NCBI RefSeq assembly: GCF_045037415.1 | Contig: NZ_CP173438.1 | Strand: one strand, 5' to 3' | DNA length: 64,000 nt | Origin: Escherichia coli | GTDB taxonomy: Bacteria > Pseudomonadota > Gammaproteobacteria > Enterobacterales > Enterobacteriaceae | Part shown: piece by piece, positions 57,001 through 60,000 of the stretch | Position numbering within the stretch: position 1 is the stretch's first letter | Layout: the number at the start of each line of letters is the position of its first letter | Program-made: the position numbers

Positions 57001-60000
57001 GGCACCTTTACCTACCGCTTTACGCAGCATTTCTTCTGCGGCCTGCGTACTGAATGATGAAGCAACGAGCAATGAACCTAACAGTAATGAACCACGCAGG
57101 CGCGATGAAAACAGATGACGTAAATGCATGACGACTCCCTTTGATGAACCGATATTTTTGCTGCTTCACAATGCTTCGCTAAGCGTAATCATCGTTACGC
57201 CCTTGTTATAAATGGGAATGGTAATCATTATTTTCTCAAATGTGGAGCATTTCTTACCGTTATGACTACAATTTTCTCAATTACTTAACGTATTGTGCCG
57301 TTTTGTTTTCCATAAATTTACAATTTTATTACCATGACGGTGTTTTCCCATTCTTAACCTGGCTTTTTTCATGAAGATTTTTTCCGTCCGACAGACCGTT
57401 TTGCCCGCACTGCTTGTCCTTTCCCCCGTTGTTTTTGCCGCTGATGAACAGACCATGATTGTCAGTGCCGCACCGCAGGTGGTTTCAGAACTGGATACCC
57501 CAGCAGCCGTGAGCGTGGTGGATGGCGAGGAGATGCGCCTGGCAACACCGCGCATTAACTTGTCTGAATCACTGACCGGAGTGCCTGGTTTACAGGTACA
57601 AAACCGACAGAACTATGCGCAAGATTTACAGCTGTCGATTCGCGGATTTGGCTCCCGCTCCACTTACGGAATTCGCGGTATTCGCCTGTATGTGGACGGT
57701 ATTCCCGCTACCATGCCCGACGGACAAGGGCAGACATCTAACATCGATTTAAGCAGTGTGCAAAATGTGGAAGTGCTGCGTGGCCCCTTCTCTGCTCTGT
57801 ATGGCAACGCGTCTGGCGGTGTAATGAATGTCACCACCCAGACCGGACAACAGCCACCAACCATTGAAGCCAGTAGTTACTACGGCAGTTTTGGCAGCTG
57901 GCGCTATGGGCTGAAAGCAACGGGCGCAACGGGCGACGGCACACAACCCGGCGATGTCGATTACACCGTCGCAACCACACGTTTTACGACCCACGGCTAT
58001 CGTGACCATAGTGGCGCACAGAAAAATTTAGCCAATGCCAAACTGGGCGTACGCATTGATGACGCCAGCAAATTAAGCCTGATTTTCAATAGTGTGGATA
58101 TCAAAGCAGATGACCCAGGTGGGCTAACCGAAGCAGAATGGAAGGCGAATCCACAACAAGCGCCTCGTGCAGAACAGTACGACATGCGAAAAACCATCAA
58201 GCAAACTCAGGCTGGGTTGCGCTATGAGCGTAGCCTGAGCGCACAAGATGATATGAGTGTGATGATGTATGCCGGAGAGCGAGAAACGACCCAGTACCAG
58301 TCAATCCCCATGGCCCCGCAACTTAACCCGTCACATGCGGGCGGCGTGATTACCCTGCAACGCCATTACCAGGGGATAGACAGCCGCTGGACACACCGTG
58401 GTGAACTGGGCGTTCCAGTCACGTTCACAACCGGCCTGAACTACGAAAACATGAGTGAAAACCGCAAGGGTTACAATAACTTCCGCCTGAATCGCGGCGT
58501 GCCGGAATACGGGCAAAAAGGTGAGTTGCGCCGCGACGAACGCAATTTGATGTGGAACGTCGATCCCTATTTACAAACCCAGTGGCAACTGACCGACAAA
58601 CTTTCGCTGGATGCTGGCGTGCGCTACAGCTCCGTGTGGTTTGATTCCAACGATCATTACGTTACTCCGGGTAACGGCGATGACAGCGGTGATGCCAGTT
58701 ATCACAAATGGCTACCTGCCGGATCGTTAAAATATGCAATGACCGATGCCTGGAATGTCTATCTGGCAGCCGGGCGCGGTTTTGAAACGCCGACGATTAA
58801 TGAACTGTCTTATCGCGCTGATGGACAAAGCGGTATGAACTTTGGTTTAAAACCCTCCACCAACGATACAATTGAGATCGGCAGTAAAACGCGTATTGGT
58901 GATGGACTGCTTAGTCTCGCATTGTTCCAGACCGACACCGATGATGAAATTGTTGTCGATAGCAGTAGCGGTGGGCGTACGACTTACAAAAATGCCGGAA
59001 AGACCCGTCGTCAAGGCGCTGAACTGGCATGGGATCAACGTTTCGCGGGAGATTTTCGCGTAAAAGCGTCCTGGACCTGGCTTGATGCGACCTATCGCAG
59101 CAATGTCTGCAATGAACAGGATTGTAACGGTAACCGGATGCCAGGGATCGCCCGTAATATGGGCTTTGCGTCGATAGGTTATATACCGGAAGATGGTTGG
59201 TATGCAGGCACGGAAGCGCGTTATATGGGCGATATTATGGCAGATGATGAAAATACGGCCAAAGCGCCTTCTTATACACTCGTCGGCTTATTCACCGGGT
59301 ATAAATACAATTACCACAATTTAACCGTGGATTTATTTGGTCGTGTCGATAATTTATTCGATAAAGAATACGTTGGTTCTGTCATTGTCAATGAGTCAAA
59401 CGGGCGATATTACGAACCTGCGCCCGGACGAAATTATGGTGTCGGCATAAATATTGCGTGGCGATTTGAGTAATTATCTTTAAGCCCGGTATTTGCCGGG
59501 CGTATTTTATTTATCGGCTGTATTGCTGGCACAACATAGCAACGTTTTTTTGCATAGTGAGGTTTTCGACAGCCAGAGCAACTGCCATTAACTCCAGTTC
59601 GTAGCGGATCCGATTGATTTCATTTAATTGACGTTTTCCCACTTCCGGAACTGTAAATGCTTGCGCTGGTGCGACAAAGAGCGCATTTACCGAAACCAGA
59701 CGTAAGGAACCGGCGCGCCATGCGGACGCGAGGACAGAACCCAACATCGGTTACGCTGCGTTTGTTGCCCCATAATGCTCTCCTGTGCTTTTGGCATGAA
59801 TCCATCAATAGTAGCAGGCTCACAGGATTGGTTTTGTTTGCAGCCGTCACATCCCCTCTGCAACACGCAATAATTTCATAGAGGAATCCGTTGCTTCGGG
59901 CTGTTTTCGATAGTATTGATAACATCATCATCATTATTTTATCGAGGCCAGACATGTCCATCCGTTTTGCCCGCAAAGCCGACTGTGCTGCAATTGCGGA

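Follow-up and report, generated by a model that had tools for sequence, protein, structure and literature searches.

We are confident that the conserved Fur box between the divergent genes yncE and pqqU (formerly yncD) is the operator at the yncE promoter through which Fur represses yncE when iron is replete. The operator is a ~25-bp array, at 57208-57232 of the 64-kb stretch of Escherichia coli DNA that we analysed (the window). Fur control of yncE has reportedly been in print since 2003. What we add is the precise register of the operator and how far it extends, its invariance across genera and its linkage to yncE, a consistent promoter model, and a correction of the gene context.

A preliminary description of this DNA had pointed to a Fur-like 19-mer, gaatggtaatcattatttt, at 57216-57234. 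This 19-mer is present at exactly that position, within the 241-bp gap between yncE and yncD/pqqU. The resemblance to the Fur consensus reflects a real Fur box, but the register was off: the correct box, GGGAATGGTAATCATTATT, begins 2 nt further to the left (Table 1). In the correct register, 15 of the 19 bases match the consensus GATAATGATAATCATTATC, versus 5 of 19 in the register that starts at 57216. Read in the orientation of yncE, the box is AATAATGATTACCATTCCC.

Searching the window for the 19-mer consensus with up to 3 mismatches gave no match. The 7-1-7 pattern TGATAATnATTATCA is matched at 57219-57233 with 3 mismatches, but this is not significant (4 matches in the window versus 3.3 expected). 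Because the consensus searches were empty or at chance level, we trained a Fur matrix on 18 Fur-repressed intergenic regions from K-12, with yncE excluded. Matrix scoring, which the preliminary description had suggested as a check, bore out the box. It scores 15.13 bits, versus a negative score in the register at 57216, and it ranks second among the ~128,000 positions of the window. The highest-scoring site in the window (33801-33819) lies 41-59 nt upstream of adhP, for which Fur control has been published independently. The yncE box is of medium strength: the 18 known Fur regions have leave-one-out scores of 7.4-24.5 bits with a median of ~18, as compared to 15.1 bits for the yncE box. When the AT-rich spacer was dinucleotide-shuffled 20,000 times, a single site of at least 15.13 bits appeared in 194 of the shuffles (p ~0.01). 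(We had also expected yddA to serve as an internal Fur control, but it is missing from the window because this strain lacks yddA-yddB.)

The primary box overlaps a second Fur site, in 6-bp phase (Table 1). A pair like this one, 6 bp apart, was found in 7 of 20,000 shuffles of the spacer (p ~3.5e-4). These two sites are also the only pair in the window that are 6 bp apart and both score above 10 bits, and many other species likewise have a neighbouring Fur site above 10 bits at +/-6 bp. Spacing of 3 or 6 bp between sites is described as a hallmark of Fur clusters in PMC2189734, and the overlapping sites of the yncE array have this spacing. With the trained matrix, no further position in the yncE-pqqU spacer scores above 6 bits.

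Table 1. Features of the yncE-pqqU region, in coordinates of the window.
Feature	Position	Strand	Basis or remarks
yncE, 353-aa periplasmic beta-propeller protein; the regulated gene	56068..57129	-	ORF, annotation, Fur-dependent expression
Leader segment GAAGCATTGTGA, putative RyhB pairing site	57166..57177	-	11/12 complementary to RyhB 5'-TCACATTGCTTC-3'; duplex energy, conservation
Conserved stem-loop GCGTAA-CGATGA-TTACGC in the yncE leader	57183..57200	-	RNAalifold
Overlapping second Fur site ATAAATGGGAATGGTAATC	57208..57226	.	13.66 bits; 6-bp phase with the primary box
Predicted yncE transcription start region, leader of ~82 nt	57209..57213	-	Geometry of the candidate promoter
Primary Fur box GGGAATGGTAATCATTATT	57214..57232	.	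15/19 consensus, 15.13 bits, invariant core, ChIP peaks
Candidate yncE -10 hexamer TACCAT, within the Fur box	57218..57223	-	Promoter scan and conservation
Candidate yncE -35 hexamer TCCACA	57241..57246	-	17 bp upstream of the candidate -10
Marbox-like sequence ACGGCACAATACGTTAAGT	57283..57301	-	1 mismatch to AYnGCACnnWnnRYYAAAY
Predicted pqqU core promoter	57307..57335	+	Best plus-strand score; blocks conserved in alignment
pqqU (formerly yncD), 700-aa TonB-dependent PQQ importer, divergent from yncE	57371..59473	+	Annotation, literature, RNA-seq

Fur occupies this box in the cell. The preliminary description had also proposed a comparison with Fur ChIP data, and published ChIP-exo and ChIP-seq peaks coincide with the box. 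We re-mapped the peak coordinates to the window: the ChIP-exo peak from W3110 (1524928-1524940) corresponds to 57210-57222, the ChIP-exo peak from CFT073 (1711873-1711885) corresponds to 57211-57223, and the centre of the ChIP-seq peak from CFT073 (1711868) corresponds to 57228. ChIP-exo peaks at the yncE spacer were reported for eight E. coli strains, and under iron-replete conditions only, which means that in vivo occupancy of the yncE box is iron-dependent. Overall, Fur binding in this spacer is on record from ChIP in nine strains. Fur was bound upstream of yncE in PMC4676285 as well; Chen 2007 does not mention yncE. In the MG1655 sheet of the ChIP-exo data of Gao 2023, the gene columns are shifted by one row, and the coordinates are those of U00096.2. 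Because of this row shift, the mapping of the MG1655 peak rests on our re-registration of the sheet; the mappings for W3110 and CFT073 are unaffected. Two loci picked by means of the MG1655 coordinates proved to be off target and were left out of the matrix training.

Published data also confirm that expression of the adjacent gene yncE depends on Fur, with 9- to 280-fold derepression in fur mutants. The log2 fold change of yncE (fur deletion versus wild type) was 3.1 to 8.1 in eight of nine strains, and yncE was up 147- to 205-fold without fur in CFT073. The level of the YncE protein is higher in a fur mutant, and yncE is a member of the Fur-1 and Fur-2 iModulons. yncE counts among the conserved core genes of the Fur regulon, and its operator was already documented.

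All 72 distinct enterobacterial upstream regions carry the core TAATGATTAC[CT]ATTC without variation, at about -100 relative to the yncE ATG. The 15 genera share this core unchanged, and no other block of the intergenic region is conserved as well. A best match of at least 14 bits is located at -110 to -90 in 53 of 77 yncE upstream regions; among 1,861 control windows of 250 bp, 6 reached 14 bits. Near-perfect boxes are found in Buttiauxella (24.6 bits) and Rouxiella (22.5 bits), and the Fur box is also kept in about ten Citrobacter loci where no divergent pqqU is present. The box belongs with yncE rather than with pqqU, and it is conserved across Enterobacteriaceae, although its conservation is not cleanly separable from that of the -10 element that it contains.

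The box overlaps a conserved candidate promoter for yncE, so Fur likely represses yncE by occlusion, as judged from the predicted promoter. In 71 of the 72 distinct upstream regions, the candidate -10 reads TACTAT, TACCAT, or TATTAT. At the candidate -35, the block GCTCCAC(A/T)TT is nearly invariant, with gap-free spacing to the box in 15 genera. Relative to the predicted start of yncE, the box would lie at about -21 to +4. The candidate promoter is rather weak (its score is 6.0, and its -35 hexamer matches at 4 of 6 positions), and the promoter scan gave two other minus-strand candidates that score as high or higher but are not conserved. We rejected TATAAC (57207-57212 region) as the -10 element of yncE, and ATGGGA/TAAAAT as its promoter, as neither is conserved. 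Our search of the literature found no experimental yncE transcription start, footprint, or EMSA.

We propose that when iron is replete, Fe2+-Fur binds the two overlapping 19-bp sites of the array, probably as two dimers given the 6-bp phase. The bound array would cover both the candidate -10 hexamer (TACCAT, 57223-57218) and the predicted start of yncE, which would exclude RNA polymerase. If there is a second promoter, of the MarA type, with a start near 57244-57250, then the array, at about +12 to +42 relative to that start, would form a roadblock. During iron starvation, Fur would be released and yncE would be strongly transcribed. RyhB, which is itself repressed by Fur, would then add post-transcriptional activation via the yncE leader. 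On the other side of the spacer, the effect on pqqU would be weak, or limited to certain strains or conditions.

The yncE leader contains a conserved stem-loop (Table 1). In 36 sequences, RNAalifold identified 7 stem pairs; every one shows compensatory changes, and G-U pairs are frequent. The hairpin covaries on the sense strand, so transcription should pass through 57200-57183 in the direction of yncE. Rfam has no family that matches within 56900-57600. A second part of the leader, which is also conserved, is complementary to the core of RyhB. The predicted duplex between the leader and the RyhB core has an energy of -24.9 kcal/mol, and 20 of 2000 shuffles were equally good; here we restricted folding to the RyhB core, as unrestricted folding was uninformative. 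A yncE-lacZ fusion is activated by RyhB, and CopraRNA ranks yncE only 834th as a RyhB target. Upstream, the marbox-like sequence is conserved across genera, but the pattern alone is not significant (2 found versus 1.3 expected). A RegulonDB entry for yncEp places MarA at -41.5.

The preliminary description called yncD a TonB-dependent receptor gene and suggested that iron regulates both genes. The product of yncD is not an iron receptor: it is PqqU, which imports pyrroloquinoline quinone (PQQ) in a TonB-dependent manner, and RefSeq names the gene pqqU here. PqqU does not sustain growth under iron limitation, and a fhuF-lacZ reporter was unchanged by PQQ. As for iron regulation, the suggestion holds for yncE, while the evidence for pqqU is inconsistent across strains. 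Two papers state that yncD is not Fur-regulated and that it is unresponsive to Fur and to iron. Without fur, the log2 fold change of pqqU was 0.12 (not significant) in MG1655 and -0.10 in W, versus 2.95 in W3110 (p 2.7e-51; 8-fold) and 2.02 in EC042 (4-fold). pqqU is in the Fur regulon of only two of nine strains. So co-regulation of yncE and pqqU is conditional at best. That pqqU is derepressed in W3110 and EC042 yet unchanged in MG1655 and W is a loose end of some value; the two K-12 strains MG1655 and W3110 differ in response although their intergenic sequences are identical.

The predicted promoter of pqqU has a -35 hexamer of TTTCCA (57307-57312) and a -10 hexamer of TACCAT (57330-57335), with transcription expected to start at about 57342. 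The centre of the box is ~120 bp upstream of this promoter, so direct occlusion of pqqU is improbable, and the box would not overlap both promoters. We rejected TTCACA/AATCAT, the sole plus-strand candidate from the first promoter scan, as the promoter of pqqU. Its -10 hexamer shows no conservation of the kind expected for a -10, and the candidate falls on the hairpin, whose G-U pairs point to RNA structure on the opposite strand, in the sense of yncE.

We consider it rather unlikely that pqqU is conditionally co-repressed, either via the Fur array or via transcription-coupled effects of the strongly derepressed yncE promoter. If it is, then iron starvation would, in some strains or conditions, increase PQQ scavenging and hence the formation of periplasmic gluconate by Gcd, contrary to the present view that Fur has no control over PqqU. 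YncE, with its inputs from Fur, RyhB, and possibly MarA and with its structured leader, might then share a pathway for PQQ and gluconate or for iron mobilisation.

We also considered that the same Fur array might directly repress both genes as a shared bidirectional operator, whether through an unrecognised pqqU promoter near the box or by the spreading of Fur along the AT-rich spacer. This would account for the rise of pqqU without fur in W3110 and EC042, and the authors assign the peak to both genes in those strains. The lack of a response in MG1655 could reflect a weaker baseline of repression (wild-type yncE is at ~300 FPKM in MG1655 versus 18 in W3110). Near or over the box there are weak plus-strand promoter candidates, TTGTTA/CATTAT, which would start at about 57238, and TGGAGC/TACAAT, which would start at about 57279, and a review counts yncD/yncE among the head-to-head pairs whose UTRs possibly overlap. 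However, these box-proximal candidates are not conserved, while the best and conserved candidate for the pqqU promoter starts ~120 bp away. A shared operator also seems inconsistent with the unchanged expression of pqqU in MG1655 and W, its membership in the regulon of just two strains, the two papers that state a lack of response, and the retention of the box where pqqU is absent. Furthermore, PqqU carries PQQ, which does not alter iron status, and the modest rise of pqqU could be indirect, such as from supercoiling due to the ~250-fold induction of the yncE promoter. Overall, we doubt that a shared operator is the explanation, and we favor an operator for yncE.

It is very unlikely that the conserved block is instead the core promoter of yncE, or the site of another regulator, with only an incidental likeness to a Fur box and with repression acting elsewhere or indirectly. 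The invariant TAC[CT]AT inside the box is plausible as a -10 hexamer, AT-rich promoter DNA often resembles a Fur box, and matches to the consensus alone were at chance level. But the Fur signal of three independent ChIP data sets is centred at 57210-57228, and only when iron is replete. Nothing else in the spacer scores above 6 bits. The invariant stretch is ~18 bp (TAATGATTAC.ATTC.CA), which is well longer than a hexamer, and in place of this block, distant relatives have near-perfect Fur boxes rather than better -10 elements. Finally, although ~1% of spacer shuffles contain a site of at least 15.1 bits, the idea that the box is a functionless chance match in AT-rich DNA is effectively refuted by the ChIP data and the invariance across genera, and it also conflicts with the phased second site and the strong dependence of yncE expression on Fur.

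As an operator for yncE, the array resembles the canonical Fur boxes of iron-starvation promoters such as those of fhuA, cirA, fhuF, sodA, and ryhB. Like them, it is a 19-bp operator similar to GATAATGATAATCATTATC with overlapping sites in 6-bp phase, Fe2+-Fur binds it under iron-replete conditions only, and its target is strongly derepressed in fur mutants. Overlap with the promoter, as in the canonical cases, is predicted for yncE. Unlike the canonical boxes, it is of mid strength (15/19; 15.1 bits versus a median of ~18), and YncE is a periplasmic beta-propeller protein that is not a recognised component of iron uptake. Like cirA and shiA, yncE is under the dual control of Fur and RyhB. Activation of yncE by RyhB is at the level of a translational fusion, and the conserved leader segment that is complementary to the RyhB core is a putative pairing site. 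The enterobactin cluster (fepA-fes, fepD-entS, and fepB-entC) also has divergent genes that are separated by short AT-rich spacers with Fur sites. In the enterobactin cluster, both of the divergent transcription units are reliably repressed by Fur. In contrast, only yncE responds consistently, with pqqU responding in two of nine strains, and the yncE box is ~120 bp from the predicted promoter of pqqU.

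The 241-bp spacer between yncE and pqqU (the current RefSeq name of yncD) contains a Fur box, as the preliminary description had proposed from its resemblance to the consensus, but the register has to be moved 2 nt to the left. The 19-mer named there lies exactly at 57216-57234, where 5 of 19 bases agree with the consensus GATAATGATAATCATTATC and the matrix score falls below zero; at 57214-57232 (GGGAATGGTAATCATTATT), 15 of 19 agree. Consensus matching by itself is not convincing: searching with the 19-mer consensus and up to 3 mismatches gave no matches, and the 7-1-7 pattern matched 57219-57233 with 3 mismatches, which occurs as often as expected by chance. 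So we built a 19-bp weight matrix, using seeded iteration and a training set of 18 intergenic regions that belong to classic Fur-repressed genes from K-12 (fhuA, fepA-fes, fepD-entS, fepB-entC, fiu, fhuE, cirA, exbB, sufA, nrdH, feoA, ryhB, nfeF, sodA, fecI, fhuF, tonB, and mntH), with yncE left out.

The box at 57214-57232 scores 15.13 bits and ranks second among the roughly 128,000 positions in the window. The only higher-scoring match (33801-33819, 15.48 bits) precedes adhP by 41-59 nt, and adhP is a Fur target known from independent published work, which validates the matrix. Since the training regions score 7.4-24.5 bits when left out one at a time (median about 18), this is a mid-strength box. 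A second site (57208-57226, 13.66 bits) is offset by 6 bp. Of 20,000 dinucleotide shuffles made from the AT-rich spacer, about 1% held an equally good single site and 0.035% the phased pair. Clustering of sites with 3- or 6-bp offsets has been published as the hallmark of real Fur operators (PMC2189734).

Features of the yncE-pqqU region and related loci
Feature	Coordinates	Strand	Description
yncE	56068-57129	minus	353 aa
pqqU (yncD)	57371-59473	plus	700 aa; divergent from yncE
adhP	33860-34870		intergenic Fur ChIP-exo peak in published strains
Stem-loop GCGTAA-CGATGA-TTACGC	57183-57200	minus	yncE leader, directly downstream of inferred start
Candidate yncE -35, TCCACA	57246-57241	minus	in nearly invariant block GCTCCAC(A/T)TT
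Candidate yncE -10, TACCAT	57223-57218	minus	17-bp spacer to -35
Marbox-like ACGGCACAATACGTTAAGT	57301-57283	minus	1 mismatch
Predicted pqqU promoter	-35 57307-57312; -10 57330-57335	plus	best-scoring and conserved candidate
Citrobacter yncE loci L029, L030, L033, L034, L039-L041, L044, L085, L096			no divergent pqqU within 400 bp of yncE; Fur box at about -100

Two other places in the window have matrix matches near gene starts. The third-best match (8014-8038, 15.0 bits, with a 9.4-bit neighbor at 6 bp) precedes a fimA-like fimbrial gene (8110-8673) by 72-90 nt; the published Fur peaks labeled "fimA intergenic" in Sakai and EC042 may correspond to it. Two predicted matches at 41652-41682 (13.5 and 12.9 bits, 12 bp apart) lie at the very start of narU.

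Published data place Fur on this box. ChIP-exo peaks were reported in the spacer in MG1655, W3110, W, EC042, BL21, Crooks, Sakai, and CFT073, in each strain under iron-replete conditions only (Gao et al. 2023, PMC10164565). We re-mapped the W3110 peak (1524928-1524940; yncE ATG 1525021) to 57210-57222 and the CFT073 peak (1711873-1711885; ATG 1711967) to 57211-57223. A ChIP-seq peak from CFT073 (center 1711868, height 845; Banerjee et al. 2020, PMC7157518) maps to 57228, so that the re-mapped peaks together span 57210-57228. In the MG1655 ChIP-exo sheet (coordinates U00096.2), the gene columns are one row out from about P37 on; once re-registered, peak P44 coincides with the other two strains. 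Beauchene et al. 2015 also found Fur binding upstream of yncE. The reported repression of yncE is borne out as well: upon deletion of fur, yncE rises in 8 of 9 strains, with log2 changes from 3.1 (MG1655) to 8.1 (W3110), and by 147- to 205-fold in CFT073. A fur mutant has more YncE protein, and the Fur-1 and Fur-2 iModulons both include yncE. (MG1655 has a second ChIP-exo peak within pqqU, "yncD intragenic", at U00096.2 1520944-1520980 or about 57480-57516, which is absent from Seo et al.; we found no Fur-like sequence under it, with a matrix maximum of 4.95 bits across 57400-57600.)

The box is also conserved. The yncE-yncD region was found in 5,410 of 5,426 complete E. coli genomes, and our spacer aligns without indels to those of K-12 MG1655 and W3110, from which it differs at 7 positions, none inside the box. 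Scanning one genome per species gave 79 yncE loci from Enterobacterales, 77 of them scorable. The best match upstream of yncE lies at -110 to -90 from the ATG in 67 of the 77, and it reaches at least 14 bits in 53 of these; of the 1861 250-bp windows taken as controls from these loci, only 6 do. The box core is present in 72 distinct upstream regions. Across 15 aligned genera, TAATGATTAC[CT]ATTC.CA does not vary, and no other block of the spacer is as conserved. The boxes of Buttiauxella and Rouxiella are near-perfect (24.6 and 22.5 bits), and the matrix found no box upstream of yncE in the three Erwinia loci. About 10 Citrobacter loci that lack a divergent pqqU retain the box with its distance to yncE unchanged, so the box travels with yncE.

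How might Fur repress yncE? Our literature search found no experimental transcription start or footprint for yncE. Among minus-strand promoter predictions, TCCACA-17 bp-TACCAT is the sole conserved candidate, and its -10 hexamer (TACTAT, TACCAT, or TATTAT) is present in 71 of 72 regions, with ungapped spacing. With this promoter, transcription would start near 57211, and the Fur array (57208-57232) would then cover about -21 to +4, as in classical occlusion. The stem-loop in the leader, compared across 36 enterobacterial species, has compensatory changes in all 7 of its pairs and frequent G-U pairing, which argues that it is an RNA structure of the yncE sense strand and hence that transcription begins upstream of 57200. 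It matches no Rfam family; it may be a 5' stabilizing hairpin or a regulatory element. Taken alone, the marbox-like sequence is no more than expected by chance, although it is conserved across genera, and it would agree with the MarA annotation at -41.5 cited from RegulonDB only if yncE also had a start near 57244-57250. A position of about -50 relative to the predicted pqqU promoter would fit it equally well. Transcription from such a second yncE start would put the array at about +12 to +42, where it would still repress.

RyhB was reported to activate a yncE translational fusion. On the minus strand, 57177-57166 (GAAGCATTGTGA) is complementary to the RyhB core 5'-TCACATTGCTTC-3' at 11 of 12 positions, and every genus keeps the leader block GGAAGC.ATGT. 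Between the leader and the RyhB core, the predicted duplex has -24.9 kcal/mol, and 20 of 2000 shuffles were as good. The segment is thus a candidate site where RyhB may pair to activate yncE; together with the reported activation, it suggests a coherent Fur/RyhB circuit.

The preliminary description had viewed yncD as a TonB-dependent receptor gene and both genes as iron-regulated. An iron receptor it is not: YncD is PqqU, the high-affinity TonB-dependent importer of pyrroloquinoline quinone (PQQ), and it gives no support to iron acquisition. Iron regulation holds for yncE and is conditional at most for pqqU. Two papers reported that yncD is not Fur-regulated, and RNA-seq of fur deletions agrees in MG1655 and W (log2 changes of 0.12 and -0.10), but pqqU is clearly derepressed in W3110 (2.95, p = 2.7e-51) and EC042 (2.02). 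(The pqqU of CFT073 is a pseudogene with a frameshift.) Since the MG1655 and W3110 spacers are identical, the difference is not in cis. Wild-type yncE expression is about 300 FPKM in MG1655 versus 18 in W3110, and repression is much weaker in the MG1655 data set, so a small effect on pqqU could be masked there. Direct occlusion of pqqU is unlikely because some 120 bp separate its predicted promoter from the box; a reasonable alternative is that the divergent yncE promoter, once massively induced, acts on pqqU indirectly. Conditional control of PQQ uptake by Fur or iron is, in our view, unlikely.

This strain lacks yddA-yddB, and a truncated M16 peptidase (a pqqL remnant) remains at about 21670-22590, so the Fur-regulated yddAB-pqqL operon of K-12 is missing. 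The site upstream of yncE is a textbook Fur operator that is already in the literature.
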